From Octopus vulgaris (Eukaryota): a DNA stretch of 64,000 nucleotides. Within the stretch, counting starts at the first letter, position 1; every line of letters begins with the position of its first letter. A model generated the notes under the pieces. That model saw nothing but the letters and a program-made list of their open reading frames with translations. It had not been told where the DNA came from and did no database searches. Both the position numbers and the translations under genes were made by a program. The stretch spans positions 23,932,001-23,996,000 of the forward strand of contig OX597823.1 of NCBI GenBank assembly GCA_951406725.2, given 5' to 3'. Shown here piece by piece: positions 93 to 62,381 of the stretch.

Positions 93-332
93 ATTCTCAG
101 ATCCATTTTGTGAAAATAAAAGATGCAGCTCTGGATGAAACAGGGAAAACATTGTGGAGTAAGAAAAAAGTAACACCAGATGCATGTGCTGAAAAATGTT
201 TTTCTGACAAAACTTGTTTATCATTTGAAATAACTAAAGGAAGTGGACTCTGTTACTTATCAAAGCAAACTGCAGCTTCCTCCAAGAAAATAAAAACAGA
301 CAAAAGCAGAGATTACTACCAACGAGTAAAAT
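93..332 (+). CDS. Exon A1, PAN/Apple-like domain
   Basis: ttctag|AT TCT CAG ATC CAT TTT GTG ... GTA AAA T|gtaatt; 240 nt; C-x3-C-x5-C-x11-C (CAEKCFSDKTCLSFEITKGSGLC) and DYYQR. Confidence 0.88.
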
Positions 333-3300
333 GTAATTATTGTTTTTGTACTTTATTATTGGATTTTTCTGAATTTGTGATTCCATTTGTACTTCATAGT
401 ATATAGACAACTATTTGTGTGAAGACATTGACAGGTTAAGAATGTTATCCATAGAAAACCCTGAACAAAAACCTTGAAAAAAAATAGCCACTTCAGTTTC
501 ATTGCTACCCAGAGCAACCCTGAGAATATCAATACACTATCCTACAAATCCTCTTGCTCAGGTCAGGTTTGACATAGCATACTATATCTGAAATCTTTAA
601 GATTAAGTGAGATAGTGTAGCCCATTCTTTTTAATACTTTTGAGTATTATTGAAGGAAAACTTAATCCATCCAGAAAATTATGTTTTAGCAAAAGACTAT
701 CTTCTCAGAATAAATAAGAATTCTGGTACATCATGAGACATACATGAATGCTCACCTGAATATTTTGGTTGTACATAGTGCTTTTGTACATGCATCTTTC
801 GATAACATGCATTTATTTAATACTAGTCCAACCCATGCTAGCATGGAAAGCGGACGTTAAATGATGATGATGATGATGATGATGCATGGCCATTACCACA
901 ACACATGATACATTGATTAGCCATCTGTTTAATGGGGTATCAACCTTAATGTTGCCAGTATGTTTGGAGATGTTCTACCTCTCTCTCATGAATTCTTAAA
1001 AGAGTGTCAGTTTGTGAATCAACTATTTCTTTCTTTTACTTTTTAATTGCTCTATAAGACTTTGCAGCCATGCTGGGGCACTGCCAAAAAGAATTTTGGT
1101 CAAATGAGTTAACCCCAGTAGTTGTTTTTTTTTTTTAAGCCTGGCACTTATTCTAACAGTTTCTTTTGCCGAACTGCTAATTTATGGTGACATAAGCACA
1201 CCAACATAAGTTGTCAAGCAGTGATAGGGGATACACACATACACATGCACAATGAGCTTCTTTCAGTTTTTGTATGCCACTCATAAGGATTTGGTTGGCC
1301 CAAAGCTATAGTAGAAGACACTTACCCAAAGTGTCACGCAGCAGAACAGAACCTAGAACCATGAGGTTGAGGAGCAAACTTCTTACCACTCAGTCACATC
1401 TATGCTTGTTTATAATGAATTTTTCATTTGCAAAATTATGTTTCAAATGCTTTAAAATATTTAATACATGCTAAGATGTGTTAGAATGTAGTTGTTTTCT
1501 TTTTTCTGTATTTTCAGCTGACAAGCCTCTTCAAATTAAGAGAGTTAGTATATTAGAGAAGGAAACTTTTGGAAGGCTTATGAATGTGAACTTAAAGACG
1601 TGTAATGAAGCTTGCTTTCAATATCCGGATTGTAATTCTTATGAGTACAATGAGAAAGATAAATTATGTGATCTAAGCAGAGTGACTCGGTTGACTGATC
1701 AATTTAAACCCAACTATGGAGTTTGGGATTCATACACAATCACCCCAGGTCAGTAGAGCATTTCCGTTTAATTTCTTGAGTGTATATATGTCACCCCCCC
1801 CCCCCCACACACATACATACATATCTGTGTGCCAATATCTTCTGATTGTTTCACTCAGTATCTTTTATTCTAAATCTGTCATTATCTCTTCATTCTCACC
1901 CTCTTCCTAATATGTACACATCATTGATATCAATTTCTCTTACTCACTTTAGTTTACATGAAAATTGATTGTGGACCACCGAAAGATATTGCTGACACAT
2001 CAAAATCTTACAATACCACCACCTATAATTCTGAAGTGACCTATACTTGTCCAGGGGGAGAGAAATTTAAATCGATATGTAAAGAAGATGATAAATGGAC
2101 TCCAGTGGTAACTAACTGCAAAGGTAATGTATATAGATTATCTCTTGCTGCCTTTACCTAGGTAATTTTGTTTTATATTTTTGTTAAAGAATGGCTGACT
2201 CTTTGAAAATTTCCTGTGTTTGTGGCTGCCTAAAGAAAGAGTAGAGGCTATTCTCAGTCCAGAGGCATTCTCAAATGCTTGCAAAAGAGAGTACTTTATT
2301 AAAGCTATCCTATGGCCAGGTAGTGTCATTAATCTGTGTGACCAATTAAGTCTGCCTTACAAGAACAAGAAGTGTGGAAGTACTTTCCCTCCAGCAGGCT
2401 TCAACATAGTTTCCACCCATCAAATTTCATGAATAGTGCTTAATCATGAAGCAAATTTTTAACCACATTGCTCAAAATCTCCCCAATACCAGATCGTTGT
2501 TAAGTGGATTTATTACCATCACAGTTATATCTCAGCACCTCTTGATTGTTTTTCTCTTAATTTCTAATTTGACTTTTCACATGCATACTTTGTCATCATA
2601 CAAAACTCTCAACAGTACAATGCTCTGAGTCTTTTACTAAAACTTAGTAATTTTTTGAAATTTCTGATGTTCTAATGATCATCCATTCCACCATCCGAAA
2701 TTATGATAATACAAATAATAATGATGGTTCCTAATTCGGGCAAAGAAGCCATGAGTTTTTGATAGAAAAGGATTAATCATTATCTTTGACCTCAATACTT
2801 GACTGTCGTTTTATGTTACTGCTCCCAACACTGCTAGAATGAAAGGCAAAATTGACATTTGCTGGATTTGAACTGAACACATGAAGAGCCTGAACAAATA
2901 CTATAAAGCATTCCTTCCCATTCTCTAATTAGTAATCATTTCTACATTTAAAATAAAGGTGATAATGACGATGCAGTTCTCCTGAGTGATGAAGAACCTC
3001 TATCTAACTGCAGCTGAACATCATCATAAACTCCAAGAACAAGTGTCCTCTTCAATTATTGTTCTCTGATTTGCAGGTTTATGCTCTGTGGTCCCCATCT
3101 ACCCTCACTATTTTTTGCGACTCTCTCCATCTTCACCTTCTTCACTAGTGAAATTTTAAATGCGCTGACGTCCAAACAGAAATGTCACCATTGTCAGACC
3201 TTTCAACTTCATCCATTGTACAACTTTTTTTGTTTCAACTACAAGAAAGAAGAAAGCTACCGTCTCTGCTAAGTTAAAGGAGAGTCTGTGACAATCACTA

Positions 3301-3921: not shown

Positions 3922-4008
<87 letters not shown>

Positions 4009-4207: not shown

Positions 4208-4250
<43 letters not shown>

Positions 4251-5506: not shown

Positions 5507-5538
<32 letters not shown>

Positions 5539-8500
5539 TATATGATGGGCTTCTTTCAGTTTCCACTTACCAAATCCACTGATAGCATTTGGATGACCAA
5601 CAGCTATAGTGGAAGACACTTGGCCAAGAAGCCTTGTAGAGGATTGAACACAGAGCCATGTAGTTAGGAAGTAAATTTCTCAGTACGCATCCATGTTTGT
5701 TTCACTCAGTCATATTTGTTCTAAAAGAACAACTAGGAAAAAATGCACCAAGTTGCATCCAGCATGGAGAACTATTAGTAATGTAGCTAATTATTGAACA
5801 GAGAACTGATTGATTAAAAGTTATTAACATAATAATTTCACCCTCAGAATGTGGTAGAATTGTTTTGTGAATGACTTTTTTCTAGATTGGAAATTCAGAA
5901 GAGACAACCTTATAAACATAATCACTATTCTTTTGCATCTCACTTAAAGCGTACTTTGAAGAATAATAATTTTTTTGCTTGTTACATAAAGTTGTGAGTG
6001 TCTACATTTATTAACTATTTACTCAGTAGATGATGATGGTGAAAGTAAATTTATTTTAGTTTTCCAAGGTAAACATTACTAAATCTATAAAGTGATGTGT
6101 CTTCTCATGAATAGACATATTTAGTTACTTCCTTTTATGTTCTGAGTTCAAATCCAATCTGGATGTACTTCATTGTTTCATATTTCTGAGGTTGATAAAA
6201 CAAGCACTAGTCAAATACTGAAGTCATTTTATTTTCATGTGTCCTCATAGTAGCATGTATAGCATTGTTTTTGGAATTAGGAAATATCATTAATATTGTT
6301 TCCATCAATAATAATTATAAGTATTCTTATTGTGACGGGCTATGGCTTGACAGAATCACTCAAGTACCAGACAAAATGTGCTATGGTATTTATGTATTCA
6401 ACTTTTGTGTTTAAGTTTAGCTGTGGTTAACTTTACCTTTCCAGGGCCAGTAAATAAAACTGCCAGTCAAATGTATAGACCAATTTTAATCAGTCAATTC
6501 TTTATTTAAAGTTTTAACTTTCATTCAATATTAGAAATTACTATTATTGTTATTGTGGTTGTTTTTCATTGGTCTAAATTTTACTTTGACTCTAGATACT
6601 CATATTACATTTATGAAAATAAAAGATGCAATTCTGGATGTATCTGGGAAAACATTGTGGAATAAGAAAAATGTGACAGCAAAAGCCTGTGAAAAAAAAT
6701 GTTTGTCTGATGAAAATTGTTTATCATTTGAAATAAATGTAAAAAGTAGACAATGTTACTTATCAAAGGAAAGTGCAGCTTCTTCTGAGAAATTAAAGCC
6801 AATCAAAGGCAGAATTTACTACCAACGATTAAAATGTAATTATACTTTGTATTTTATTATTGGGATATGCTTTTCCTCTTTGTTTAAAGCTTGTGATTAC
6901 ATTTGTATTTCATAATATGAGGGTGAGTTGAAAAGTTCATAGGTTCCCTATGAAGGAATTTTACTAGAGCTGTGAAATCTTGCATGCATTAATTTCAGCT
7001 CTTCTTATTAATAATTGCACAGTTTCTTTCGGGTAAACTGACATCTGACTGTTCAAAAAAGACTTCAGAAGTAACAAGTAGTGATGTCTCTTGAAAGTGG
7101 ACAAAATTTAGCACCATGGTGTTATCAAGTGCCTGCAGAAAACATGTTTAGCCACCCCCTAGGACATTTATGCTCACACAGTTGCTACATAAGGGTATAA
7201 TGCTCCAGCTTTATCAACAGTACAAAAGTGGGTGGCTGATTTTGGAGGGGAAGGGAGAGTCTTGAAGATGACTCAAGGTCTGGATGTCCTGCATCTGTCA
7301 CCAGTGAGGAAAACTGTTATAATGTGGATTCTTGTTCCCTTGCATATTATTGTCAGCACTGTAATATTCTTGTTGCCACTAATATGTTGTGGCTGTATTC
7401 CATGTCTTGCTTTCTGTGACTTGTCTATCATGCTATTACTGATAACTCCACAAGACAGTGACTTTGAAACATCTACCTTGACGGTAACTCGAACTTGTAT
7501 ATATCACGTAACTGACACTGACTCCAACTGAAAACTCGTAGAATGAGTGTACTACTACTGACCTCCTACAACAGCTGATGCCTGATTTTACAGTGGCCAA
7601 CTCATACCACTTGTCACTTGGGCAAGGGTGTACCATTTCACTATATCCCCACTTTTCATTTTGTTTTCTTTGGGAAGCAAGTAATCTTTTACCTTATTCA
7701 TTCCACCTCCCTTTTTCAGCATTTTTTTTCTATAAGTTTGTCCTCTTATTAGGGAGTGCACTTGGTGAGTAAGCTTCAGGTTATACTGGGCAGATCATTT
7801 TCCAACTGACTCTTCACTGTCTCTTTAAGCTTCCTTAACTTCAGACTGGTATGCATCACTGAATTGTTTTAGGTCAAAGTTGAATGTAACTAGCTACTTA
7901 CATATGTTGGTTTACACACTCATAACCCAGGAAGGACTTTGTATTCACCAGCATCTGTCTATCCTATTTCTGATAAGAATATAGTTAATCTGGCTTCTGT
8001 GCCCACCACATTGATAGATGATCAGGTAACTGGCTGGTTTCTTGAAATTTGAGGCGCAAACAACCAGAACATTTGCATCGCAGAACTCCAAGAGACTTCT
8101 TCCCACTTCATTTCTAAGACCAAAACCACAGACTCCATATATTACATGTAATTCATTGGATTGGTGTCCAACATGTCTCTGAAAGTCACCAGCAAGAAAT
8201 ATAAGGTCACTATTATTTGTCATGAAGATAATCTACAAAATAGCCTTGCAAAATCAGTCTGTTTTCATGTATTACTCCCAACTGAGGTGCATATGCAGAG
8301 ATAAATGTATTTTTTACTGGAGAATTTAAAATTTATTTACTCTACCACGATGTTTGTGTGCCACAATTACCTTATCTACCCATTTCTCTGCCCAAAAAGT
8401 TCCTACACCTCACACACCATCACTATTGTCCACCCTAAATAATTTATGCCTTTATTCTTTTCGATGAGAATTCTGGCTGAGGCTCCTCTCCATCTTGCTT

Positions 8501-9473: not shown

Positions 9474-12400
9474 AATAAGCAACAAGGATATCCAGAGGTA
9501 ATGCTGTATGATCGTTTCATGTGACTCCATTTAATTGAACAATGCAAATATTACATCAATTTAAAATGTAGACCAATCTTCAGCTGCATAAAAATATAGA
9601 ATTTAGTTAAATTTGAAGGATTCATTTGTATAGTTTTCTTATTATCCAAAAGCATAAAGAGGAAAAGTAGATAGACAAAGAACATGTTTTATCAACAACA
9701 TCACAGTTGTTACATCAACAGTTGTAAATAATTTTGTGTTCTTTTAACTGCTATCAAAATACACAGTTTCATAATTGCAGAAATAAATTTCATTAACAAG
9801 TTGAAGAACGAGAAAATAATTACTACATTATTTTATTTATGTATATTTAACATCTATGGTACAATTGGAAAGTAAAGTCATTTTGTCATGGAGAATTATG
9901 ACTTAAAATTCACACTATTTAATCCTTCATACTAACTACTAGAGTTCACAACAATTCAAATAAGTCTTGTTGGATTTTTATCATGGACATGGCATAAAAA
10001 AATAGCCAATATCTCAATGAGTGAGTGTCATAGAGTTTAGTAACATCCAATGAACACTGATTAATTTCCCCAAAATCAGGGTTTTTATAACTGCCCATAC
10101 CTGAATTCTAAGAACCGTATTTCATGAAAGAATTCTCTTTGACTAAAGTTTAGAATTCAAATATGGGCAGTAATTTTAACCAATGGGATACCAACAATTA
10201 TGTTTGTTCGGGCAAACAGCCATTATGTCATATTGCTGCCTTTTATGACTTGCTACATCATAAGACATACTCAAAACTTTGTGTGAATGTTTCCATTTTA
10301 GATCTTTTCATATATCCCTCTTTTGATGTGTGTTTTTGATTATGATTGAATAGCCATAGCAACAGACATGTTGATTGATCTGTTGAAGAGAATTTTCACC
10401 CTACATAAGCATACTTCAAGGAAGGGATGTACAAATGAGTTATTTGCAGCCTCAGTATTGAGAAAAGGTTCCAATAAGTCTGAAGTTCTTCAACAACTCA
10501 CATGAATTCTTGCTAGAGCTTCAATTTGTAAATGAATTATTTCTATAAAATATATTTTCCGTTTACAGACTCATGCACCATATGCTTTATAATATTAAAT
10601 ATATGTGTGTCTGAATATAAAATGTATTTCTTGCTTTCTTTTTCCTTCCAGTCGATGATGAGCATATAATATTTAAAAATGTTAGCTTACCAATGAAGGC
10701 TACTTTTGAACAGCTTACGAATGTGAACTTAAAGAAATGTAATGAAAGTTGCCATCGACGGGAAAGATGTACTTCCTATGCATATAATGTTAACAATAAG
10801 GTCTGTAATTTGAGTCATGTGACTTCATTCACTACTGATCTTAAACCCAACGATGGAGGCTGGGATGTATACATAATTAATCCAGGTAAGTAGAGTGTTT
10901 TATCTGAGTCATTGTGTGCATGTTTTTGTGTATAAATATGTGTGTGTTTGTGTAAGAACTGCTATGATATGTGATAATGAGACATGGGCATTGAACACAG
11001 AGGACATGAGAAGATTGGAAAGAAATGAAGTTAGCAATCTACATTGGATGTTCAATATAAGTGTGTATGAATGATATAGTATAAATATGCCAAGTGAAAA
11101 ACTGGGCAAAAGAGAAATCAGTTGAAGTATGCAAGCGAGAAGGCTACATTACTGTGGACAAGCAGTGTGTATAGTTCAGAACAGCTGTACAGAGAAGTGC
11201 TAATCCCTAAATATGGCAGGGCTGGTGGATGAAAGACACATTGGACAAATTGGTGAAGGTTGATTTCAGGGTGTTGAGCATTGCAGAAGAGATGTCTGGC
11301 AATACATGACTCTCAAGAAGAACCACATATTGCATGACAAAACTAACTTCTGGAAGCACTGTTCATCATTTAATGATTGTTGCCCATGCTAGCATGGGTT
11401 GGATAGCGTAACCAGAGCTGGCAAGCTGGGGGAAGCACAAGACTCCACTCTGATTTCGTATGGTTTCTACAGCTGGATACCCTTCCTAATGCCGACCACT
11501 TTACAGAGTATGCAGAATGATTTTACATGGTACTGCATAGATTCTTTTTGGTACTGGATGGGTGTTTTTACATGGTATCACATAGGTGTTTTTACGTGAT
11601 GCTGCATGATCGATTTTACAATTCACAACAGGAATGCCTTTATGTGCCACTGCACAGGTGCTTTTATGTGTCGCCACACAAGAGCTTTTATGTGTCATTG
11701 CACAGGTGCTTTTACATGGCATCACATAAAAGCTTTTACATGGCACCACTACAAGTGCTTTACGCAACCAGAAGGATTGGTCTTAACATTTCTGCTGTGT
11801 TGTATGAGACATCTTGAGTACAGCCATGTGCCAGGCATCCCAGCCCTTTGTCATCTCACCTGAAAGGTTCAGCTTCCTGGGGTTGTTCTTCAGTATTTCA
11901 TTCCATGTCTTCTTGCATCTCCCACTACCACATGTTCCATCCACTTTGAGAGATTGGCACTTCTTTATGGAGCTCTTGGCATCCATTCACATCACATGAC
12001 CAAACCAGTACAGCCTCCTCTCTTGCACACAACAACAAATTCCTCTTATGCCTAATTTCTCTCAAAGAACTCTGGTGCTTTGTTGAACATGTACACTTAC
12101 ATTACACATCCAGTGGAGCATGCTAGCCTCATTCTTTTATAATCTTTGCATGTCCTCTGCATTCAAAGCCCACATCTCACTACCATGTAGAATTGTTGTG
12201 TGTATACATGCATCATACAGTCTTCCTTTCACTTGGAGAGAGAAACCTTTCACAACATAGTAACACCTCTCTGAATTTCCTCCACCCTATTCTTATTCTA
12301 GCTAGCATACTCTCTCTGTATCTTCCCCCACTAATGATTTGGTCCCCCAGGTAGCAGAAATTATCTACTACCTCTATTGAGCAACCAGGACATTTGAGAG

Positions 12401-21240: not shown

Positions 21241-21274
<34 letters not shown>

Positions 21275-26749: not shown

Positions 26750-26784
<35 letters not shown>

Positions 26785-29700: not shown

Positions 29701-31760
29701 TGAAAAATCTAAATCATGTGTTCTGAGTAATGTGGATCAGTTGACTGGTGATCTTAAACCCAATGTAGGAAACTGGGATGTTTATATCACTAGCCCAGGT
29801 CAGTACAGTATTTCCATTTTATCTGTATGTGTGTGTGTGTGTCGGGGGGGGGGGGCATTTTAATCATATAAATCAACACCGGTACTTATTTCTAAAGCCT
29901 GCTACTTATTCAGTTGGCCTGCTTTGCTGAATATTAAGATGTAGTGCAACAAAATAGGAACTGTGTGGTTGGGAAGTAAACATCTTACAAAGCATAAATG
30001 AATAAATTCTAAACAGTAACATAGCCCTAAATTTAATCAATAAAAATTTCTCTAGAACATTCTCCATAACAACCCATTCTAAAATCTAATTACTATTCTG
30101 CTCAAACCCATACGCCTAAAGAAGATTTTTAACTTAACAATAACAAGTCAAGATTAACTTCAGTGAAACACAGTCTGAACTTCGAAGTCCCTGTCACTAA
30201 CATTCTTGTTTAAGAATAATATCTGTGTATGTGAATGATAAAAATTGATGAATTGGTTATCTGGCATTGCTAGAATTGTTTGATTAATGTTTTTAGTGTC
30301 AAGCAAGTGAGCATTAACTTGTTGATTAATTAATCAACTAGCCAGTTCTCACTTGTTTATTTAATAGCCTCATGAGATGGCAGTTATGCAGCATATCACA
30401 CAATCTAAATTATTATGCTTATGTCACAAGAAAAACTCCTAATGAAACCATTGTAGTAATACTAGATAATCCATCCATCTGTTTTTGATATGTTCGTACA
30501 CCAATCCATTCATCTGTTTTTGATATGTTCATACACCAATCCATTCATCTGTTTTTGATATGTTCGTACACCATACTTAAGTTTCCATTCATCATTGGAT
30601 AATTTTGGATACTATGGGATTTGTGGATTATCAAACAATCATGAACTGACTAAAGATAATAGATTATTTAACTGTTTCTTTTGCATCATTCTGTGTAGGT
30701 AATTTGTGTCACTCTTCATTTTAATATGCCTTGATCCTTTATGGATACCATATGCATGTGCGCATGCACACACACACACACACACACACATACACACACA
30801 TGATATTAAGGATATACAAAAAATGTAATTAACTTCTTAGGTTTTATAAAAGCGCCACCTGTTTAAATAAATCAACTGACAAGATTACATAATCAAATAT
30901 GTGGTGGAATATAGGGTGACAGAGGTGTGTGGTAATGGCCATACCCTCCCCTATATATTTAGGTAGACACAGGTATACTCTCATAGACACTCACAGCCAT
31001 AGAGTTATACACACTATAGAGAGTAAGGATGGTAAAATAATAACCCCAAATCAATGTAGAAACAGTGGCAATGGCAAAAATGGCCCCAATAACAATAATA
31101 ATTGTAGCAATATTTACTTCAGCATAAACAGCTTCTGTCACATATAAAAGGTGAATGGAGATAGTTGCTGCCTTTGATGGATTTATAATATCAGCTTCAA
31201 AGAACTTGCTCTTAGGTAGAGAAAGCAGGCATTCAGAAATATTTCTGTGGTCACAAGGGAGTGATATATAGTGTACCACCCACCCTGACATCCTTCCAAT
31301 CGCATGTCCATCATCACACACATACAGTTAGATATACATGCATGCAGTGTTAAACCCATATGTGATGTAATCCACACACATAATTACATGCACACACACT
31401 CGTGTCTGTCGATGAACCCATACACACATATACATACTATATACTCAATCACAAATACCCACCCTTACTATCATTCCATAGAGCAACCAAACTTCTTAAG
31501 TAATTAAGTGTGCTCTTTTTCTGTGGATGCCTATAGAGTGTAGCAGATTCCAAACCTTGAATCTGCTACACTCTATATATATTCCCTACTGGGAATGACC
31601 AACTTTTAGAGAATCTTACATTGCTTATAAACTCTATATCTGGATGGACTCATATTAAACATTGTTGGACTTTGGGATTTTACTCAAAGGATATTGGAAT
31701 ATTACACATATATACCATTATGCCTATAAAACAAATTTACGAATTCAATAACCATACATA

Positions 31761-31798
<38 letters not shown>

Positions 31799-47668: not shown

Positions 47669-48615
47669 ATTATATGCTTAAAGCATTAGAAGTATCATGT
47701 TCTAGAAAGTATGAATAAAATTTTCGAAAGCCATTTAATTCAATATTTGTATATGGACAATTTATTTTAAAATTAAAATCCATTCACAATAATATTATTG
47801 GAAGTAAGATACCCTGCTCAAAATTAAAGTAAATTCTAGTACATAGTAAGATCTAGCGGAACCTCATCTCAATCATTAGGTTGTAGATAATCCATTTTTA
47901 CACCCACCCTCCGGTGGTGTACTTAAGATTAAATGACCATGAACTCTTCACACTCTGGTTGACCTTCTTTTGAACACTATTTAGAGCCTACAAATGCACA
48001 ACAATTTGTAGAATTCTGTACAAATTAAATTATATGCAACTTAAATTTTGAAACAAGTTTTCAAATTGGTCTCAAGATATGCTGCAGCCCATATGAATCT
48101 TGACTAAGTTGTCATTTTGTGGATCAATTATTTGTTTATAACAATTTATCCATTTAAAACAAATTATGCACCAGATATTTAACAGGTGTATCTATGAGTA
48201 TGCAATGTATATCTTGTTTCCTTTCTGTCTTTTCTAGCCAATGATCCCATATTTTCATTTAAAAGATGTTCCATAAAAGGGCAAGATGTTTTTGAACGAC
48301 TGAATAATGTAACCTTAAAGGAATGTGAACAAGCCTGTCGTAATACTCCAGAATGTCACTCTTTTGAGTACCAGGAACAATACAATTTCTGTGATCGAAG
48401 TAATGCGACTCACTTGACTCATCAACTTCAACCCAGTGCATGGGGCTGGAATCTTTACATCATTAACCCAGGTTAGCAGAGTGTTACATTTTATTTCATG
48501 TGTGTGTGTTCACATGTATATTTGCATGTGAGTTTGCATTTGTGTGTTTTTATGCATTTTGAAATATGTACATGAATGAGCATAATGTCTGTCTGTCAGT
48601 CGGTCTGTCTATCTA

Positions 48616-53616: not shown

Positions 53617-56600
53617 GGAAGCAAGAGTATGAACAGCAACTGTACAGAATTATTAATGCCACTCCCTCTGTTGAAGAGGATTGGTCTGGAAGAGTCCTGT
53701 GCTGGTCTCACATAAAAATGTTCCCGTGCTGGAGCCGTGTAGAGGCACCCATGCCAGTGCCATATTAAGAGCATCCAGTACACTCTGTAAAGTGGTTGGC
53801 ATTAGGAAGGGCATCCATCCGCAGAAACTAACCCAATCAAACTGGAGCCTAGTGCAGCTCCCCTGTTTGTCAGCTCTAGTCAAATCACCCAACCCATGCC
53901 AGTGTAGAAAACTGATATTAAATGATGATGATGATGATGATGTGCTAATCTTTTATGCAATCTATGTAGTAGGCAATTTTTCTAGTACATCTGGAGTCAT
54001 GTTTTTCTGCATTCTCATTTATTTTGTATCATGCAAGCAGCATTAGTATACATTTCTCTTATCAATTCTAGTTTACTCAAAAATTGACTGTGGACCTCCA
54101 AAAGATGTTGTTGTTGGTGCAGAAAAGTCATACAAAACCACAACCTATAAATCTGAAGCTAACTATATTTGCCCAAATGGAGAACGACTAAAGTCAATAT
54201 GTGAAAAGGACAAAAAGTGGACTCCAGTAGCACCTTCTTGTAAAGGTAATGTAAACAGGTTTTCTCGTCTTGTCACTGTTTTGTTTATTTCTGTGTTAAA
54301 TATCTTTGTCAGATGAAGACTGGCTAACTCTATGTTAATTTCACATGGTGTTTGTGGCTGATGGGAAGGAGAGAGTAAGCTATCCTCAGACAAGAGTCCT
54401 CCTCAAATGCTTGCAACAGAATGGACTCCATAATTACTACCCAATGGCCAGGTAATGCTATTAAAAGTCTAGCAGCCTAGAGCTGGAAGCATTGAAACTT
54501 GCTCTTCTCTTGCAGGTTTCCACATAGTTCACATCCACCAAATTTCATCTGCAAGGTTTAGTTGTGAAGGAAATTTTAAACAATGCAGAAAAATACTCCA
54601 CTCTATACCTCGTTGTTGTTAAGTAAACTTGTTTGTCCATAGCTATGCTTCAACTCATCATGGTAAATTTTCTCTTAGTTTCTAACTTGACCTTTTTCAT
54701 CCACACTTTGTGTCATCATCCAAAACTGTACAATACAATGTTTCAGTTCTCTATAAAAACTCAGCAATCCTCTGAAACAGGCTTCTGATCCTTTGGTTTT
54801 CTTGCAGTCTATCACTCTTATTAACAACAATACTAACAATAATAATTTCTGACTTAGGTTCAAAGCCAGCAATTTTTGATGGGAGGTGTTTAGTCAATAC
54901 CATCAACACTACTATTTGACTGGTACTTTATGATATTGACACCCACAAGAATGAAAGGCAAAATTGACCTTGTCTTGATTTGAATCAAAAGAGTCTGAAT
55001 ACACACTCTAAAATATTTCTTCCAATTTTCTAATTACTATATGTGTATACATTGAAAATAGAGATGTAGATGATGATACAACCCTCATGAGGACCTATTG
55101 AAGAATCCTACCTTTGAAGACCATCCTGAACTCCAGGGACAAGTGTCTTCTTCAGTTGTTGTTCCCTGACCTACAGCTTTATGCACTGTGGCCCCAATTC
55201 ATTCTTGCACTTCTTACCATTTTCACCTTACCATCACTAAAATTTTCCTTAAGGCCCATACCTTCCTCTCCATCTTCATCTTCTTACAAGTGAAACTTTA
55301 AAAATGCAGATATGGATTGACCAAAGTGGAAGGTTTCTATCATCCAATCTTTCAAACTCATTTGCTATAATTACCAGACAGAGGGAAAATGCTTATTCTT
55401 CCAGTTTAAAGGAGGGTGTGAGGCAATTACCAGGATGGGCTTGGCTGATGGCTAGATTCATCCTACACACAATAGCATCTGTTTGACATAATGCTACAAC
55501 TCAGCAATGCATGGACAGTGACTAAGTACATACAAAATGATTTTGGTTTCCTGGAGACATCTTGGGAAAACCTGTCTCTTGGCACTTCCATGAATTCAGA
55601 TTTTATATTGGATCAGTAGAACCCTTTGGTAACACAGACATACCAAGGATTTCATAAAGTTACCCTTAGTATTCTCTGACCAAATGTCTTCCCAAACGAA
55701 CTTGTCAGTTCACTTTTCATCAATGCTCACAACTCTGAGAATGTCAATACCCTATCCCTCCACTAACCCTCAAAAGATTGTTATAGTGGAACATCCACCA
55801 ACCCAATCACTTAGATCAAGTTTGATTCAGTATACTATATTTTCTGAAATCATTAGGATTACATAAGATAATGTAGCCTACTCTTTTTAAGGTGTTTGGG
55901 TGTGATTGAGGGAGATTTTGTTTATAAATCTTATGTATTTGACATCCACATAGGAGTATTGATAGTCGCTTGTCCATGGTAAAATTTGAACTTAATATTG
56001 GAAGCCAACAGATCTAAGGTATCCTCTGGTATAGTCTACTGTCTTGTTCAATACAACCATCTGGCCCTTCAGGTATTCATGGCAAATACTGTAGACAACA
56101 CTAGGTCCAATGTTAATATATTTACTTCGAAAACATTGATCCATAGTTACTCATCATAGATATGGAACACATTAATGCTACAAATATAAGAGGGATGGTG
56201 GCCTCAAAATTTCATGACATTACTGTCTCTGCCATGACTAGCTTGCTGAATAATAAAAATACCACTTAATTTCAATCAATTATATATTCCTTGTTTAGAT
56301 ACATGGCCAAACATAATTAGAGAAAGCTGTGAGGTAGTTTAATATTCATGACTTTCTCAAGAGCACTAAATAGCTATGTAAAGTGAACTTAGACTGAGAA
56401 TCAAACCCAAATCACTGACTCACACCAGTCAATCTATATTTATATTAAAAGAACAACTTGGGGAAATATATACTCAGGGTCACATTATACATGGAAAACA
56501 ATAAAGTGGCTGGTTATTGAACAAAGATATTTTGATTAGTTAAAATTACAGTCTGAATGGCTGGTAAAATCATTGTTATGATTTCAGAAGAGACAACCTC

Positions 56601-59600
56601 GAAAGATTATTTTTTTTACCTTTTACATCTCACTAAATCATTAAAAGTTTTAATTGTTCCCATTTACTATAATATTTTTTATTAATTCATTAATTTTGTT
56701 TCCAGGGCAAAAGTCTGAAAAATTAGTAAAATCCTTGCATTGGTTAAGCATATTCAGTTAAATACTTTTACATTCTGGATTCAAATCTACCACAGTATAC
56801 TTCACCTTTCATACATCTGTGGTTAATAAAATAAGCATCAATCAAAAACTGATGTCAGTTTATTTCCATATATACTCACTGCAGAATGTATTTAAGGCCT
56901 TGTATTTAAGTTAGGAACCTCTATATTTCTATGTTAGAATTTGTTATTGTAATTTTTCATTTGTCTAAATTTTTCTTTAATTCCAGTTGCTCAGATCTAT
57001 TTTGTGAAGATAAAGGGAGCAGCTCTGGATGTATCTGGGAAAATTTTGTGGAAGCAACATGTATCAGTAGATGCCTGTGCAAAGAAATGTTTTTCTGACA
57101 AAAATTGCTTAGCATTTGAAATAAATAAAAAAAGTAAAAAATGCTACTTATCAAAGCAAAGTGCAGCTTCCTCTCGACAATTAAAATCAGACAAAAACAG
57201 CGATTACTACCAGCGAGTAAAATGTAATTATTTTTTGTATTATGTTATTTGCATTCTCTTTGCTTCTTTTTCTGAAATTTGTGATTCCATTTGTACTTCA
57301 TAGTATATAGACGAACAATTCTGTGAAAATATCTACAGGTTTACCTATAAGGAGAGACATAAATATGTTGAAAACAAAAGTAATACTAGATACTGTGAAT
57401 ACTGTCTGGGCATTCCCATGCAACATTTGTTTGTCTTGAATACTTACATGCATACTTTCAGTTGTTTTTTTTTTATGTGAGAAAGGAAAGTTCTGTTATT
57501 TTCCTCAAATAGAACAGTGAAGGCAGTGGCTGCAAAACCATCATTGCCATCAAAGCATGAGCAGTAAAAACAACAGCTTTCTTTTCATTTCTACAAGTTA
57601 GCATAGCTTAGACAGTGCTATTACTACACAGTGTCTTATCACTAGTTTTTGTCCTATGTGCAAAATAACAGAAATACTGCCAATGTATATAGTCATGTAT
57701 TTTTTATATTTTGGCATGGTTATTATAGCAAGATGTTGTTCCTCTCAACAGCCATTGCACCACATGAATATAGTGCATTTTGCCATGCTACTAGAATTTG
57801 TTTGCTGGAAGTAAAGAATCCTCTCAGTGCATAATAAGTTCCTATTTAGAATAGTTCCATTTTATGAGAACAAAATAGCCAAGAAATTTATTTTGCTGCT
57901 AAAATACTCTCTTCTTGAAACCAGGGCAAATTCACCAGGTTTAGTGATCCCAAAATTAGAAGACTCATGAATACTAAGATGTCAATATTGTAATGATGAA
58001 TTTTTTCTGAGTCAAAAAGGAAGTCGAGCCATTTCTCTGTATATGTATGTGGATCTTCAACTGGGCTGAAGTTGCAGGCTCCATTGCAGTGTTTATCCTG
58101 GGCAGATCAGGTTTTGTACAGAGACAATTGCCTTGCAATTTCAAGTAATATGAACACCTATGTCATGAATTCATTAGGAAGAACTCAACAATAATCTTCA
58201 AGAAGTTTAATTTCAATGTAATGATCACCACTATTTTAAACACGTTCAGTGAAATAGACATTATTTGAAGATTGAAGTCAAGGATTGGACAAATAATACT
58301 TGTGCTGAGAACCCACCAAGGTGAATAAACACGTTCATGGGAATTACAGAGAAATGTTGGACCTAAGAAGCATCAAATGTGGTGTGCAAGAGAGACGACT
58401 GCACTGTTATGGTCATGTGGCAAGAATGGACGAGGACAGCTGTGTGAAAAAGTGCCACACCCTAGCGGTTGAGGGAACCTGTGGAAGAGGTAAACCCAGG
58501 AAGACCTGGGATGAAGTGGTGAAGCACGACCTTCAAACTTTAGGCCTCACCATGGCAATGACTAGTGACCGAGACCTTTGGAAATATGCTGTGTGTGAGA
58601 AGACCAGGCAAGCCAAATGAAACCATAATCTCATGGCCTATGCCAGGGGTGTAACCAGCCCACTTATGCGTACCTTTTCCTCCTTTGGACACTAAAACTC
58701 AGCTTGCAAAGACCTGTTGAGGCACGTGAAATCAATCAACCAATCAAAAGCAAAATCAAATTCGATGACTGGCGTCGGTGCTAGCAGGGTGCAAAGAGCA
58801 CCATACGAGCATGATTATTGACAGCAGCTAACTGACTTCCATGCCAGTGGCACCTAGAGAGCACCATTCAAATGTGGTCATTACCAGCGTCGCCTTACTG
58901 GCACTTGTTCCCGTGCTAGTAGAGTGCCAAGAGCACCATCCGAGCATGATCATTGCCAGAGCAACCAACTGGCTTCCATGCCAGTGGGCACGTAAAAGGG
59001 CACCATTCGAGTGTGATCGTTACCAAAATCGCCTTCTGGCACCTGTGCTGGTGGCATGTATAAAAGGATTCAAGCGAGGTCATTGCCAGTACCGCCTGAC
59101 TGGCCCCCATGCCGGTGGCATGCAAAAGCACCCACTACGCTCTCGGAGTGGTTGGCGTTAGGAAGGGCATCCAGCTGTAGAACCTCTGCCAAATCAAGAC
59201 TGGAGCCTGGTGAAGCCATCTGGTTTACCAGCCCTCAGTCAAAACCGTCCAACCCATGCTAGCATAGAAAGCGGACGTTAAACGATGATGATGATGATGA
59301 TCTCCAAACTATAATACAAAATGTAGCAGCTAGCATTGTTAAAAGAATCTCTGCATAATCCTCAAATTGAGATACTTTTGACAGCATTTCTTGCAGTACA
59401 AGATATTATTTAGGGTTGGCTTCATTGAGAAATTAGTATAAATAGAACATTCTCCACCTCCACACTTGAAGAGAATTAGGATAATGAAATTACTTAAATC
59501 AATCTTTCCTTCAACCTAAATGTCCTCATGAACATAGCCAGAAACATTTTATCGTGTATAAGTAACATTCCTAAGTACCAAAATCGTATGAATGTGGATG

Positions 59601-60032: not shown

Positions 60033-60098
<66 letters not shown>

Positions 60099-62381
60099 AT
60101 ATAGGTGTGTAGTTATGCATGTCCCTATGCATTCATAGATGTAGTGTATATGACTTTTCAATAATGTTTCAATATGAGTGACATGTTAGCTATTGAACTA
60201 ACAATTTTAAAATGCATATATACATATACACACTTATGTGCACACACATATACATTATATATATAAAGCTGCAAAAACATCACAAAAATATTGCAAAAAA
60301 CTGCTACTCAGAGTTTCACATTCCCATTCTGGATCACAACTGCCTGCCCAGAATGGATCACAACTGCCCTGCAAACAGGAGCATGAAACTCTGAGTAGCA
60401 GTTTTTTGTGATGTTTTTACAGCTTTAATAATAGAGTATATTACTCTGCCTCTGGTATTCGAGTACTATTTTTTCCCATCTTGTTTTTATATACATGTAC
60501 ATACACATACACAAATGCTAAGAGGAAAATACCTAATTTCTTAACATGACAGCTATTTCAAAAAGCTCAAAGTTGTGTAATAATTGTAATATTCAAAATT
60601 TGCATAGAGAATATGCAAAAAGTCTTGTGTAAACCACTGGCAAACACTCCCTGAGTTTGGCTCTTTTCATCAAGAGAAAGTTGGTAAAAGCAGTTCACAT
60701 AGTAGTGCTAGAGATTTAAACAGTTGACAGGAGCGAAGAAGAAAAATAAGAACAAAAGGCAAGAAGAGGAAGGACAACATATGCAATGCAGGAAGGCAGA
60801 ACAGAGATGGAAAAGAAGAAATGAAAGGCGTGGAAAGGGGGGAGGAATTCTATTACATAGGTGGAATGAACAGATATTGAAAGGGGTGAAGATAGAACAC
60901 CTTCCTCATGAGCCAAGTTTTCAGTAACCTTTTCACATTTTACAGGAAAAAGAAGTTGAGTGCTGAGAGGGAAGTGTGGTCTTCCAGAAAATTTGTTGAA
61001 TGTAAATGAGAGTGGTAAGCATGGTCTAAATGTACAGGACAGGTCTGAGCATATGCCTGTAGATTGGAAGCAGACAACATTTGCCTTTGTAGTCATGGTA
61101 ACTATGACTTTGCGTGGTGTCCATGAGTAATCTTCAGATGTCTCCTATTCTTTGGGGAAATTTTCTTTGTTTGAAATCTTTGTTTCTTTGTTATTTTATG
61201 TTTCACATGTTCTTTAACATAGTCCTACTTTATATCTTCATTTATCATCCTCAATGTTCTCATCTATCTTTAGAGATCAATAAAAAGAATATTATAATTA
61301 ATATTTTATAGGTAATTTTAAATTACATAAGATTATCCGTTATTGAAATTTTGAATAAACCATGAAAAAGCCATCTGGTGCATTTTAAACCGTAATCCAT
61401 TCCCAAAATTATTTTTTAGCATAAGCCAATCTTCTCAGAATAAATGTGAGTTCTAGTACATCACAGGACAGACACAAAATATTCACCTGAATGGTTCAGT
61501 TGTATATAATCTATTTGTAGAATGGTGTGCATTTCTTTGATATTGAATGGCCATAACAACACTTGAAACATTGGTTAGTAACCTGTTTAAATGAGTACTG
61601 ACACTACAATATTGCACCATTAGAGGAGAGATATACAAATGTATTGTCTGGAGCTTAAGTAGCGAGACAAGGTTTCAGATAAGTCTCAAGATATTCTGTG
61701 ACTCACATGAACTCTGATTATGGTTTCATTTTGTGGATCAATCATTTATTTATAATAAATTTTCCATTTACAAAATTATGCACCAAGTGCTTTACCATAT
61801 TTAATATATACTACAAAAATAGGTGGTAAACTGGCAAGTTTCTTAGCATGCCAAGCAAAATGCTTAGTGGCATTTCATACATCTTGACATTCTGAGTTCA
61901 AATTCCAGTGAGGTCAACTTTGCCTTTCCTCTTTTTGGTGTTGATAAAGTAAGTACCAGTTGAGCACTGGGATTGATGTAATTAACTAACCCACTCCCCT
62001 GAAATTGCTGGCTTTGAGCCTAAATTTGAAACCAATATATGCTAGAAGATATGTATGGTGTTTATTTGTATGTTTATGGTGTATGCATGTGCTCAGGTGT
62101 GTGTATGACTTAACAATGCATTTCTAATTTTCTTTTGCTTTTTTCAGCCAATGGTGAGCCTTTTGTATTACTAAATGTTACCTTACCAGAGAAGAATCAA
62201 ATTGGAAGGCTTAAGAATATGAACTTAAAGAAGTGTAAAGAAGCTTGCTATGTGTATCCAGTATGTAATGCCTTTCAGTACAACAAGAAAGCTAAATTTT
62301 GTGATCTAAGCAATGTGACACAGTTGACTGAAGGACTTAGACCTAGCAGTGTAACTTGGGATGTATACATAATTTACCCAA
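93..62381 (+). CDS. Partial multi-exon gene encoding a large modular extracellular protein of repeated PAN-PAN-Sushi units (15 exons in window; extends beyond both ends)
   Basis: 15 paralogous exons in three classes. Each has a pyrimidine tract+AG and a GT donor, a length divisible by 3, phase 1-1 and no stop. They join into 1071 codons. Confidence 0.88.
1056..1405 (-). mobile_element. tRNA-derived SINE (octopus-type)
   Basis: 'gctatagtagaagacacttacccaaagtgtcacgcagcagaacagaacctagaacc...cttaccac' recurs at about 5540-5700; reverse complement has a B-box-like ggttc motif. Confidence 0.6.
1518..1748 (+). CDS. Exon B1, PAN/Apple-like domain (second type)
   Basis: ttttcag|CT GAC AAG ... ACC CCA G|gtcagt; 231 nt; CNEACFQYPDCNSYEYNEKDKLCDLS...WDSY. 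Confidence 0.9.
1953..2123 (+). CDS. Exon C1, Sushi/CCP domain
   Basis: ctttag|TT TAC ATG AAA ATT GAT TGT GGA CCA CCG ... TGC AAA G|gtaatg; 171 nt; IDCGPP..YNSEVTYTC..C..KW..C. Confidence 0.9.
3916..4070. repeat. Compound microsatellite (CT)n(AT)n(GT)n(GACA)n
   Basis: Direct reading. Confidence 0.95.
4240..4635. repeat. Imperfect inverted repeat (arms about 4240-4370 and 4510-4635)
   Basis: tttacagaacaaatttacatgga versus tccatataaatttgttctgtaaa; mirrored ORFs 4145- and 4518+. Confidence 0.75.
4823..4908 (+). ncRNA. Degenerate minimal (type I) hammerhead ribozyme motif
   Basis: CTGATGA (4827-4833), stem II ggggagtgtctg/cggacatatctcc, then GAAAC (4892-4896); stem III and cleavage site decayed. 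Confidence 0.55.
6596..6835 (+). CDS. Exon A2, PAN/Apple-like domain
   Basis: tctag|AT ACT CAT ... TTA AAA T|gtaatt; 240 nt; CEKKCLSDENCLSFEINVKSRQC. Confidence 0.88.
6917..7320 (+). mobile_element. Mariner 5' fragment (decayed)
   Basis: TIR-like tatgagggtgagttgaaaagttcatag followed by a decayed transposase N-terminus; TIR resembles that at about 49950. Confidence 0.6.
7860..9370 (-). mobile_element. RTE-clade LINE 5' part (AP endonuclease remnant and putative 5' region with tandem monomers)
   Basis: ORF 7945..8223: AGDF..HVG, GFGLRNEVGRSLLEFC, SQINYIL. Confidence 0.75.
9412..9470. repeat. (TA)n microsatellite (similar tracts near 21243, 43865, 48675, 49065, 60035, 62455)
   Basis: Direct reading. 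Confidence 0.95.
9502..9588 (-). ncRNA. Degenerate minimal hammerhead ribozyme motif
   Basis: Minus strand: tgcag CTGAAGA [imperfect stem II] GAAAC GATC ATA cagca; homologous to the 48737-48820 copy. Confidence 0.6.
10652..10885 (+). CDS. Exon B2, PAN/Apple-like domain
   Basis: cttccag|TC GAT GAT GAG ... AAT CCA G|gtaagt; 234 nt; CNESCHRRERCTSYAYNVNNKVC. Confidence 0.9.
10970..11330 (+). mobile_element. RTE LINE 3' fragment (old)
   Basis: Similar to the ETWAL..RLERNE..W segment of the other RTE copies. Confidence 0.6.
11364..14760 (-). mobile_element. Near full-length decayed RTE LINE (endonuclease, RT, Cys/His finger, 3' UTR with about 23-bp minisatellite at 11520-11770)
   Basis: ORF fragments GRNTTDAIFIVRELQEKYL..FIDLEKAFERVP, NLIDYILIR, GTCGSGRCKKTW; many stops and frameshifts. 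Confidence 0.88.
14820..15790. mobile_element. Fragments of a second RTE-like LINE family, in both orientations
   Basis: + strand caaggagatactatctctccaaatctcttc (QGDTISPNLF) and a decayed F.DDI RT motif. Confidence 0.55.
15900..17460 (+). mobile_element. Decayed R4/Dong-like non-LTR retrotransposon fragment
   Basis: THNFFVDDMKIYAK (about 16050), GMEFG, YKYL, DTVAKTIY motifs. Confidence 0.6.
17486..18334 (-). mobile_element. Internally deleted mariner
   Basis: TIRs caagggggtacccaaaag / cttttgggtaccccctcg|ta; MADKREQHASVKFCFLLGKTA transposase N-terminus. Confidence 0.8.
18683..18853 (+). CDS. Exon C2a, Sushi/CCP domain (not in ORF track)
   Basis: tttccag|TT TAC ATA CAG ATT GAC TGT ... TGT AAA G|gtaatg; 171 nt; YIQIDCETPKDIVGTSKSYKNTTYKSEVTYICQGGEQLKSICEKDNKWTPVKSKCK. 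Confidence 0.9.
19726..21240 (-). mobile_element. RTE LINE 3' end with long 3' UTR and (GAT)n tail
   Basis: catcatcatcgtttaac tail; LHGRETWALNAE motif at about 21180-21240. Confidence 0.7.
20480..20795. repeat. Direct duplication, period about 177 bp
   Basis: gatagcaatgata...gaggacaggattggggagtg...aagttttcttg occurs twice. Confidence 0.85.
21271..22922 (+). mobile_element. 5'-truncated young RTE LINE (RT C-terminal half, Cys/His finger, 3' UTR, (GAT)n tail)
   Basis: ORF 21182..22222: GVLQDSVCSPLLF, LLYADDLAL, CSIC..CTQCKLWTHKRC..CGRC, FHYLG. Confidence 0.92.
23041..23211 (+). CDS. Exon C2b, second consecutive Sushi/CCP domain (not in ORF track)
   Basis: atttcag|CT TTT GAA GAT ATT GAC TGT ... 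TGT AAA G|gtaaca; 171 nt; FEDIDCGNPKDIAGAAMSYKTTTYKSEVTYTCPKGEQLKSVCEKNNKWTPIASTCK. Confidence 0.9.
25059..25298 (+). CDS. Exon A3, PAN/Apple-like domain
   Basis: atttcag|AT ACT CAG ATG CAT ... ATA GTT T|gtaatt; 240 nt. Confidence 0.88.
27040..28060 (-). mobile_element. Decayed R4/Dong-like retrotransposon fragment
   Basis: Degenerate RT C-terminal and zinc-knuckle-like sequence on the minus strand. Confidence 0.4.
29119..29481. mobile_element. Tc1-type MITE with 134-bp TIRs
   Basis: 29119-29252 is the near-perfect reverse complement of 29348-29481; terminus cagtggggggaaataaatatt; right flank TA. Confidence 0.85.
29568..29798 (+). CDS. Exon B3, PAN/Apple-like domain
   Basis: ttttcag|CT GAC AAA CCT ... 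AGC CCA G|gtcagt; 231 nt; CNKACYQYQQCNSYEYHEKSKSC. Confidence 0.9.
30469..30573. repeat. 35-bp minisatellite, three copies
   Basis: atccatYcatctgtttttgatatgttcRtacacca x3. Confidence 0.95.
32270..33070 (-). mobile_element. RTE LINE 3' fragment with tail
   Basis: Same 3' end and GRPRKTW-type coding remnant as other copies. Confidence 0.75.
33100..34950 (-). mobile_element. Decayed R4/Dong-like retrotransposon, interrupted by a foldback element
   Basis: KNYRPITYLNVMYKLCTGC..NEQAGGKR (ORF 33121..33336). Confidence 0.6.
33468..34178. mobile_element. Non-autonomous foldback DNA element with about 230-bp inverted arms and an internal TTAGGG-like tract
   Basis: 33468-33705 is the reverse complement of about 33950-34178 (mirrored ORFs 33493+ and 33920-). 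Confidence 0.8.
35500..35670 (+). CDS. Exon C3, Sushi/CCP domain (coding frame not in ORF track)
   Basis: actccag|TT TTC ACA AAA GTT GAC TGT ... TGT AAA G|gtaatg; 171 nt; FTKVDCGPPTQVVGAEKSYTTSTYKSEVTYTCPEGIMFTSVCKEDNKWSPVVSSCK. Confidence 0.9.
36697..36930 (+). CDS. Exon A4, PAN/Apple-like domain
   Basis: ttctag|TT ACT GTA GTC CAT ... CGA ATA A|gtaatt; 234 nt (two codons shorter, frame kept). Confidence 0.88.
37195..37263. repeat. (TAG)n(TTG)n microsatellite
   Basis: Direct reading. Confidence 0.95.
37428..38717 (+). mobile_element. Full-length mariner transposon, 1290 bp, TA target-site duplication
   Basis: ta|cgagggacattcaataagtaatgcctctgacccactt ... aagtgggtcaggggcattacttattgaacgcccctcg|ta. 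Confidence 0.95.
37595..38644 (+). pseudogene. Mariner transposase with two frameshifts (near 37785 and 38425)
   Basis: WIPRLL, TQDETW, LLQDNAPVH, YFPDLAPSDF spread over three overlapping ORFs. Confidence 0.92.
39411..41967 (-). mobile_element. Full-length pogo/Tigger-like transposon, 2557 bp, TA TSD, disrupted transposase starting at 41561
   Basis: ta|cagtgatccct ... agggatcactg|ta; MAPK start, CENP-B-type HTH, QVFNMD..LFWK, LLMDN, PNTTSLIQPVDQGVI. Confidence 0.93.
43251..43345. repeat. (CTAT)n microsatellite
   Basis: Direct reading. Confidence 0.95.
43416..43453 (+). ncRNA. Degenerate very short hammerhead motif
   Basis: tcttt CTGtTGA a gagc gtag gctc aAAAC GTT aaaga: stems I and II pair; two core substitutions. 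Confidence 0.55.
43730..43818 (-). ncRNA. Minimal type I hammerhead ribozyme, near-intact
   Basis: Minus strand: taac CTGATGA gtgactatattta...taaatatagccac GAAA t acat GTC gtta; stem I taac/gtta, long stem II, GUC triplet. Confidence 0.78.
44036..45085 (-). mobile_element. Young 5'-truncated RTE LINE
   Basis: KFRELLPLLVTKGLSLRVKGRLYDACVR; intact 3' UTR and (GAT)n tail. Confidence 0.9.
45900..46500 (-). mobile_element. CR1/L2-like LINE fragment (region between endonuclease and RT)
   Basis: Minus strand reads IKSNPTAFYKFA..GPLLKKDGTLTANP..SEILNE..KSIFS. Confidence 0.55.
48238..48471 (+). CDS. Exon B4, PAN/Apple-like domain (not in ORF track)
   Basis: tttctag|CC AAT GAT CCC ... AAC CCA G|gttagc; 234 nt; NDPIFSFKRCSIKGQDVFERLNNVTLKECEQACRNTPECHSFEYQEQYNFCDRSNATHLTHQLQPSAWGWNLYIINP. 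Confidence 0.88.
48737..48820 (-). ncRNA. Minimal type I hammerhead ribozyme, intact core
   Basis: Minus strand: tgg CTGATGA gtgctcagcatttta...taaaatgatgtagcat GAAAC GATC GTA cca; palindromic stem III ACGATCGT, GUA triplet. Confidence 0.82.
49111..49230 (+). mobile_element. Isolated 120-bp internal RTE fragment
   Basis: Near-identical to 21688-21810. Confidence 0.85.
49950..50710 (-). mobile_element. Mariner 3' fragment (decayed)
   Basis: LFHQDNALVY..FELVDH..SLDLAPFNYHLF; TIR at about 49950. Confidence 0.8.
50780..51680 (-). mobile_element. Penelope-like element fragment (RT C-terminus and GIY-YIG region)
   Basis: NCKTKNLIYCIT (ORF 50924..51205) and LPF..LII..DTHQYLNF near 51590-51675. Confidence 0.75.
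51840..53040 (+). mobile_element. Decayed RTE LINE RT fragment
   Basis: QFGFLPGRSTAGAHFLVRHIQEK..LEKSIDIVP. Confidence 0.8.
53070..53500 (-). mobile_element. RTE LINE fragment, inverted
   Basis: Minus strand YADDLALIA and Cys/His finger region. Confidence 0.75.
54072..54245 (+). CDS. Exon C4, Sushi/CCP domain (not in ORF track)
   Basis: attctag|TT TAC TCA AAA ATT GAC TGT ... TGT AAA G|gtaatg; 174 nt (one extra GTT codon). Confidence 0.9.
56987..57223 (+). CDS. Exon A5, PAN/Apple-like domain
   Basis: ttccag|TT GCT CAG ATC TAT ... GTA AAA T|gtaatt; 237 nt. Confidence 0.88.
58345..59302 (+). mobile_element. Young RTE LINE 3' end
   Basis: GVQERRLHCYGHVARMDEDSCVKKC..GRGKPRKTW; (GAT)n tail. Confidence 0.9.
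60362..60403 (+). ncRNA. Degenerate hammerhead motif within an inverted repeat
   Basis: aactgc [decayed core] ... GAAAC TCTGA GTA gcagtt; 6-bp stem I, stem III ACTC-T-GAGT. Confidence 0.45.
61820..62035 (+). mobile_element. tRNA-derived SINE (family also found, decayed, next to A and C exons)
   Basis: ttctgagttcaaattcc (B-box-like) ...gtcaactttgcctttc...gttgataaagtaagtaccag. Confidence 0.65.
62148..62381 (+). CDS. Exon B5, PAN/Apple-like domain
   Basis: ttttcag|CC AAT GGT GAG ... TAC CCA A|gttagt; 234 nt; CKEACYVYPVCNAFQYNKKAKFC. Confidence 0.87.

Follow-up and report, generated by a model that had tools for sequence, protein, structure and literature searches.

A six-frame scan combined with a splice-site search of the window (the whole stretch of 64,000 nucleotides of Octopus vulgaris DNA that was analysed) identified 15 cysteine-patterned exons on the forward strand, from position 93 to 62381 (Table 1). 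All 14 introns between them had GT-AG boundaries and phase 1-1, and the spliced frame of 3,213 nt comprised 1,071 codons with no stops. The exons were of three types, with lengths in bases of 240/240/240/234/237 (A), 231/234/231/234/234 (B) and 171/171/171/171/174 (C), and encoded ten PAN and five Sushi domains. All ten A and B exons passed the Pfam cut-off for PAN_1 (PF00024; 28-50 bits vs 21.4), and all five C exons matched Sushi (PF00084), three of them above the cut-off of 20.7 and two just under it (20.2 and 20.3 bits); the four cysteines and one tryptophan of the Sushi/CCP signature were invariant in the C exons. The splice sites and Pfam bore out the exon positions and lengths, the rule of one domain per exon and the intact frame proposed in an earlier sequence-only reading of this DNA. 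Its five copies of a three-exon module did not survive: the order was A1 B1 C1, A2 B2 C2 C2b, A3 B3 C3, A4 B4 C4, A5 B5 (ABC, ABCC, ABC, ABC, AB), such that the five C exons include one doublet (C2/C2b) and the C exon of the fifth module lies beyond the window end. With tblastn and nhmmer, no additional exon of any of the three types turned up in the window, and Rfam and tRNA scans returned no matches. Classical apple domains have an extra disulfide linking their N- and C-terminal ends; the window PAN exons carried four cysteines in nine of ten cases and five in B4, ruling out assignment as classical six-cysteine apple domains.

Table 1. Coding exons of the PAN-Sushi array in the window, with the evidence for each.
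Exon	Type	Position	Strand	Evidence and matches
A1	A-type PAN, basic	93..332	+	PAN_1, 41 bits; 86% to O. bimaculoides LOC128248839 657-734; truncated in CAI9728790.1
B1	B-type PAN	1518..1748	+	Splice sites, PAN_1; 100% to CAI9728790.1
C1	Sushi/CCP	1953..2123	+	20.2 bits, just under cut-off; 100% to CAI9728790.1
A2	A-type PAN	6596..6835	+	PAN_1; skipped in CAI9728790.1; 86% to LOC128248839
B2	B-type PAN	10652..10885	+	PAN_1; skipped in CAI9728790.1; 75% to LOC128248839
C2	Sushi, first of doublet	18683..18853	+	Sushi; 89% to LOC128248839
C2b	Sushi, second of doublet	23041..23211	+	84% to LOC128248839; nearest to second-of-doublet class
A3	A-type PAN	25059..25298	+	Splice sites, PAN_1, matches in both species
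B3	B-type PAN	29568..29798	+	Splice sites, PAN_1, matches in both species
C3	Sushi	35500..35670	+	Splice sites, Sushi, matches in both species
A4	A-type PAN	36697..36930	+	PAN_1; skipped in CAI9728790.1; 78% to LOC128248839
B4	B-type PAN	48238..48471	+	Splice sites, PAN_1, matches in both species
C4	Sushi	54072..54245	+	20.3 bits, just under cut-off; matches in both species
A5	A-type PAN	56987..57223	+	PAN_1; truncated in CAI9728790.1
B5	B-type PAN	62148..62381	+	PAN_1; array runs on past both window ends

Sequence comparison placed the window, as a small slice, in the interior of a tandem array that comprises about 300 PAN and Sushi domains in octopus. The feature first noted is genuine, on a far larger scale than described, and it is conserved across octopus species. 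A profile search with the A exons returned 11 proteins, ten of them named as Octopus records. Residues 657-1726 of O. bimaculoides LOC128248839 matched all 15 window exons in the same rank, doublet included, at 72-89% identity. The O. vulgaris model CAI9728790.1 contained ten of the window exons at 100%, with A1 and A5 truncated and A2, B2 and A4 skipped. It is one of seven O. vulgaris models (CAI9728789-793, 795 and 796; near-consecutive accessions on a contig of equal size, CAI9728794 not included) totalling 20,402 aa and 299 domains (72 A, 97 B, 129 C and one GON), with a summed mass of 2.3 MDa, 13.5% Lys, a pI of 8.8 and 233 N-glycosylation sequons. All long array proteins used here are gene predictions, and their adjacency and strand were taken from accession order, the equal-sized contig and collinearity rather than from coordinates. 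Seven O. bimaculoides models held 11,348 aa and 158 domains, and 149 of their 151 domain transitions were AB, BC, CA or CC, i.e. (A-B-C[C])n; AB accounted for 44 of the 151 and AC for none, so that PAN domains are directly paired. As B normally follows A, the O. vulgaris models probably lack approximately 25 A exons, a shortfall that would put the array total above 22,000 aa; the locus would span ~1.2 Mb if extrapolated from the 4.15 kb per exon of the window. The encoded protein is very probably much longer than the 1,071 aa visible here, and the sequence-only reading, which had placed it above that figure, was right in direction and understated the size about twenty-fold. Its suggestion of lineage restriction held up, with array matches confined to Octopus among named records: no comparable array outside Octopus was found among the best 150 matches of a phmmer search of 1.84 billion representatives, where a relative more than 50% identical could hide in a cluster.

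Databases already contain the array protein, split into fragments that are uncharacterised or misnamed in three octopus annotations. PAN and Sushi domains preceded a terminal GON domain in CAI9728796.1 (GON E 1.5e-32, lying outside the window) and in O. bimaculoides LOC106869402. The name SVEP1/polydom given to O. vulgaris models was rejected for want of vWA, EGF and pentraxin domains (Pfam scans of five models, precomputed Pfam lists for the others). The ADAMTS20-like name of CAI9728796.1 was likewise rejected: the GON was present, and metalloprotease and TSP1 domains were absent from the five scanned models. A C-terminal GON is common to the array and to ADAMTS9/20/GON-1; unlike those proteins, the array had no disintegrin domain. 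Neither an enzyme or pore-forming domain nor a ZP domain was found in the five models scanned, and the terminal model ended in the GON without a hydrophobic stretch, i.e. without a PAN-ZP/Dumpy-type membrane anchor. Membership in a molluscan PAN-Sushi-GON group applies to the window exons only if the array is one gene.

Within each type, exon lengths differed only by three or six bases; of the 106 gaps in 17 paralogous intron segments, 91 had lengths not divisible by three. When neutral drift was simulated at 0.05 changes per site, all exons remained stop-free in none of 2,000 runs. Together, the drift result and the restriction of multiple-of-three lengths to exons indicate that the reading frame and the cysteines are under strong constraint, and the four cysteines were kept in 276 of 277 full-length O. 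vulgaris copies. Residues other than the cysteines were less constrained than the frame: pooled paralog dN/dS was 0.60 for A, 0.61 for B and 0.42 for C, and exon DNA identity (73%) was the same as in the best-preserved intron segments, a set with a favourable bias. The purifying selection claimed from exon lengths therefore stands for frame and cysteines, and at the level of residues (dN/dS 0.42-0.61) it is modest. Gap counts from unconstrained DNA alignments between pairs of exons were discarded as a test, as 25 of 44 gaps were not multiples of three although the net lengths are; we read these as compensating misalignments.

Introns of the same type were mutually homologous, showing that whole exon-plus-intron cassettes were duplicated. 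For 92 O. vulgaris B domains, the closest paralog most often lay four modules away (18 of 48 best matches with identities of >=70%), revealing a higher-order repeat with a unit of 13 domains (~910 aa). Copies of this unit were up to 98% identical, and expansion has thus been recent in places. B was the most variable type, with a median paralog identity of 0.46 vs 0.59. Many short signal-PAN-(Sushi)-GON proteins of 280-430 aa were recovered by phmmer, among them proteins of Lottia, Patella and Sepia and the GON-Sep-2 cluster. Sepia CAE1175485.1, GON-Sep-2 R4FJA6, Lottia V4AAD3 and Patella KAK6175368.1 show the same arrangement of parts, ending in GON; such short relatives, at 290-425 aa, carry one to three modules before the GON, in contrast to about 298 in the octopus array. 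The Sepia domains scored best against the octopus profiles, and the octopus GON was 53% identical to that of a Sepia PAN-Sushi-Sushi-GON protein and 45% to that of GON-Sep-2. A GON tree of 36 rows, chosen from our own matches and including no ADAMTS GON, placed octopus with the Sepia GONs at a support of 90/89, below the starred level. The probable origin of the array is a short signal-PAN-Sushi-GON gene, of the kind present in cuttlefish and limpets, in which the front cassette was multiplied. The sequence-only reading had recognised the architecture from no characterised protein; its parts and their order are in fact known in short molluscan PAN-Sushi-GON proteins, for which we found no characterised function, and the array is an extreme octopus-specific expansion of that known molluscan architecture.

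The same A-then-B PAN pair was present in Argonauta GAB1601772.1 (ABAB) and GAB1605714.1 (AB-VWD-C8-TIL-VWA) and in O. bimaculoides LOC106869731 (AB-WSC), and A-position domains formed one clade (SH-aLRT 98, with long branches). Unlike the array, these cephalopod proteins lack Sushi domains, contain just one or two pairs and have signal-like N-termini and different C-terminal domains. The pair has been reused ahead of VWD-C8-TIL-VWA in GAB1605714.1 and ahead of WSC repeats in LOC106869731, and P0039 also falls in this group; we found no description of it as a cephalopod supra-domain. Long PAN-only arrays of ~20 domains in the annelid Dimorphilus (CAD5122242.1) and in P0036 were distantly similar and are probably independent expansions.

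Domain types differed in mean net charge, at about +7 for A, about 0 for B, +2.5 for C and +15 to +17 for GON. An AlphaFold model of a B-C-A-B piece of the relative P0011 (mean pLDDT 67, pTM 0.35, 15-sequence alignment) folded each domain and left the linkers at low confidence, which fits beads on a string, though the low linker confidence may reflect the shallow alignment. Domains of this model matched the apples of factor XI and prekallikrein, SML-2, MIC4 and the HGF N-domain (the last with an rmsd of 2.5 A over 82 columns), and the best PDB sequence matches of the B profile were the MIC4/SML-2 apple lectins (E 1.3e-5 to 0.005), covering the cysteine core only. Numerous CCP modules aligned to the Sushi domain of a cuttlefish-type relative, the best with a Z of 6.5 and an rmsd of 2.0 A over 54 residues. 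A Sushi-GON relative of the GON-Sep-2 cluster (P0023) gave a confident fold (pLDDT 89, pTM 0.82), for whose GON there was no Foldseek match at E <= 0.001; weak rows to fibrinogen-globe and collagen C-propeptide folds appeared, and the wide search was filled by Sushi. Sequence hints tie the first 50 residues of GON to COLFI, and ESM Atlas matches, all under 0.9, serve as leads only.

We predict, at evenly balanced chances, that the array encodes one giant secreted protein, or a few, acting as a flexible, multivalent, cationic, glycosylated scaffold that cross-links glycans or matrix proteins extracellularly; the sequence-only reading had proposed a multivalent recognition or adhesion protein, and a multivalent binder, here a secreted one, is also our best guess. 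Secretion is suggested by the disulfide-rich modules, the many sequons and the signal-bearing relatives. Under this model, the exons would be spliced into one mRNA together with a putative signal-peptide exon yet to be seen. The roughly 100 A-B PAN pairs, with basic A and variable B, would serve as binding heads, and the Sushi domains as spacers between them, giving a chain that would be about one micron long. Anionic glycans or matrix proteins might be cross-linked by avidity, with the single terminal GON as a possible assembly or secretion/export module, and a secreted gel, cement or matrix would be the likeliest setting. Toxoplasma MIC4, with six apples in three close pairs, binds terminal galactose according to PMC8247436, and PAN domains of the octopus array are also paired, as A-B. 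MIC4 and SML-2 differ in having no Sushi or GON (MIC4 has 580 aa), and sugar binding by the octopus domains is predicted only. The HGF N-domain was crystallised with heparin in the PDB entries listed, and octopus A-type domains are basic; HGF, factor XI and prekallikrein have kringle or protease domains, whereas the octopus array has neither, and four cysteines per PAN domain. In scale, the array resembles Drosophila Dumpy, a protein of ~23,000 aa of repeated modules with EGF, DPY and ZP domains. PMC4539345 presents Dumpy as a gigantic, modular, extracellular and transmembrane protein, and the likeness is an analogy of scale, not homology. No Dumpy-type transmembrane segment, EGF, DPY or ZP domain was found in the octopus array, which belongs to neither the MIC4 nor the Dumpy family. 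The GON domain of ADAMTS9/GON-1 is reported in PMC3338439 to act inside the ER in secretion.

Whether the whole array is a single ORF is a close call that leans slightly towards no. Of the flanking exons that the sequence-only reading had proposed looking for, a C-terminus was found as the GON of CAI9728796.1, and the signal peptide was absent from all 13 array models in a hydropathy scan and, by eye, from five later ones. None of the seven O. vulgaris models begins outside the array, and CAI9728793 and LOC128248841 have tails similar to what reading on into the intron would give after a C or an A exon of the window. Model breaks partly differed between species: the O. bimaculoides breaks 837/838, 838/839 and 9390/9402 lie within single O. 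vulgaris models, and two of six O. vulgaris breaks were spanned by another species' model, although one prediction spanning the break of another is not expression. Given the lack of signal peptides and these differing breaks, the models resemble pieces of a single gene or of a small number of genes, with ends that look artificial. Only the GON end was conserved between species (86% over 222 aa); one repeat family runs through models 793, 795 and 796. On the other side, the O. sinensis model across 795/796 jumps ~21 domains. A scan of the window for signal exons gave two candidates on the coding strand vs three on the other, none repeated per module. No RNA run was listed for window positions 60-2200. 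In two presumed-RNA runs over positions 22700-37150, none of the 15 joints listed (there were 912 more) connected two exons, and three contigs of these runs that touch exon C2b with differing letters could be paralogs or DNA; these observations count neither for nor against expression. An unlikely alternative, though one of some weight, divides the array among two to four very large genes of ~2,000-12,000 aa apiece, every one having a separate end and a signal exon missed by annotation, and GON only on the last. It gains from the four of six O. vulgaris breaks that are unspanned and from O. vulgaris and O. bimaculoides breaking at about the same two places (790/791 and 791/792), which could be true gene ends and which are flanked by the models most diverged from the rest of the array (791 and 792). 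Against it, the domain register carries over from model to model (A at the end of 789 is followed by B at the start of 790, and likewise from 792 to 793), a single conserved C-terminus was seen, and neither a signal nor a terminal exon was found in the window. Somewhat more tentatively than for a single ORF as such, at a little under even chances, we propose one ORF of more than 22,000 aa and more than 320 exons over ~1.2 Mb, encoding at least 2.3 MDa with a single GON end, still growing by 13-domain duplications and making a multivalent glycan cross-linker about a micron long.

Other readings of the locus are less probable. That all exons are phase 1-1, so that any subset stays in frame, that B domains are the most variable type and that short relatives have only one to three such domains before the GON would all suit a pool of optional cassettes, from which alternative splicing or intronic polyadenylation might produce shorter PAN-Sushi(-GON) isoforms as a diversified recognition or immune repertoire. 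In Dscam, like exons are grouped in mutually exclusive clusters. Here the exons are interleaved as ABC and not grouped by type, which rules out a mutually exclusive array of the Dscam type; order and doublet are also kept between species and introns were copied along with the cassettes, leaving the broader cassette pool improbable. Marginally less probable again is a secretion of the posterior salivary (venom) gland that carries or spreads venom components, as in cuttlefish relatives. GON-Sep-2 reportedly comes from a salivary gland transcriptome, that of Ruder and colleagues in 2013, and the octopus GON is nearest the Sepia GONs by the identities and unstarred support given above; however, the cephalopod venom papers examined contained no whole-word mention of GON or of a PAN/apple domain, the five Pfam-scanned models contained no enzyme or pore-forming domain, and a megadalton size would suit a matrix better than an injected agent. 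The modest dN/dS of 0.4-0.6 and the equal identity of exons and the best intron segments could be taken as signs that the duplication is silent or decaying, or that assembly produced an artefact, but this is very improbable given 15 exons with no stops or frameshifts, the near-universal retention of the four cysteines, the matching exon order of O. bimaculoides and the bridging of window positions 23112-26107, with 13 differences, by a 2,997-nt contig of run X2.

In the searchable literature, which excluded subscription journals and the supplements of bioRxiv papers, we found no account of either the architecture or the accessions, and among the matches listed for 'GON domain' none was a molluscan study by title. 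The accessible portions of the supplements of PMC7693380 (salivary gland) and PMC10138644 (skin mucus) held no accession or motif match, nor did the supplement of PMC10142993 (ink). 'PAN domain' is among the labels of the octopod expansion heat maps of a genome comparison (PMC7656900, Fig. 1) and goes unmentioned in the main text, as far as the available part of that paper extends. A single gene spanning the array would explain part of the octopod PAN-domain expansion in that figure, and its product would be a secreted protein on the scale of Dumpy, among the largest known in animals, hidden as misnamed fragments. A molluscan gene of 300 residues would have grown about seventy-fold by cassette and higher-order duplication with its frame kept. 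The array is also a testable candidate for an octopus-specific secreted material, and offers a non-protease setting for studying the GON domain, for which no clearly related solved structure emerged here.

Introns of the window bore transposons, as the sequence-only reading had described, with fragments of RTE-type LINE, mariner and pogo elements and Pfam matches in five of 15 intronic ORFs scanned. The longest ORF of a decayed RTE-type LINE at 21182-22219 (+) had a reverse transcriptase domain and a PHD-like finger, and similar pieces lay near 11800-13700, 32300-33050, 44035-45150, 51700-53500, 58300-59300 and 62550-63900. The A4-B4 intron held a broken mariner-type transposase at 37550-38433 (+; HTH_48, Transposase_1) and a broken pogo/Tigger-type transposase at 40044-41459 (-; HTH_Tnp_Tc5, DDE_1). 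A 234-bp inverted pair at 33468-33701 and 33947-34178, with 91% identity and high read depth, is likely of MITE type. Hydrophobic frames upstream of A exons were considered as signal peptides and rejected as polypyrimidine tracts, with an in-frame Met only at A4. Upstream of A4 (window 36570-36696) the frame is open for 42 codons, with that Met and an Ile-rich stretch mimicking a signal peptide, a feature absent at the other four A exons. On exons A4 (36697-36930) and C2b (23041-23211), up to 12 contigs of DNA runs were piled, with a summed depth of 100-210 vs 4-10 for long near-identical contigs, as expected from the many paralogous exons.
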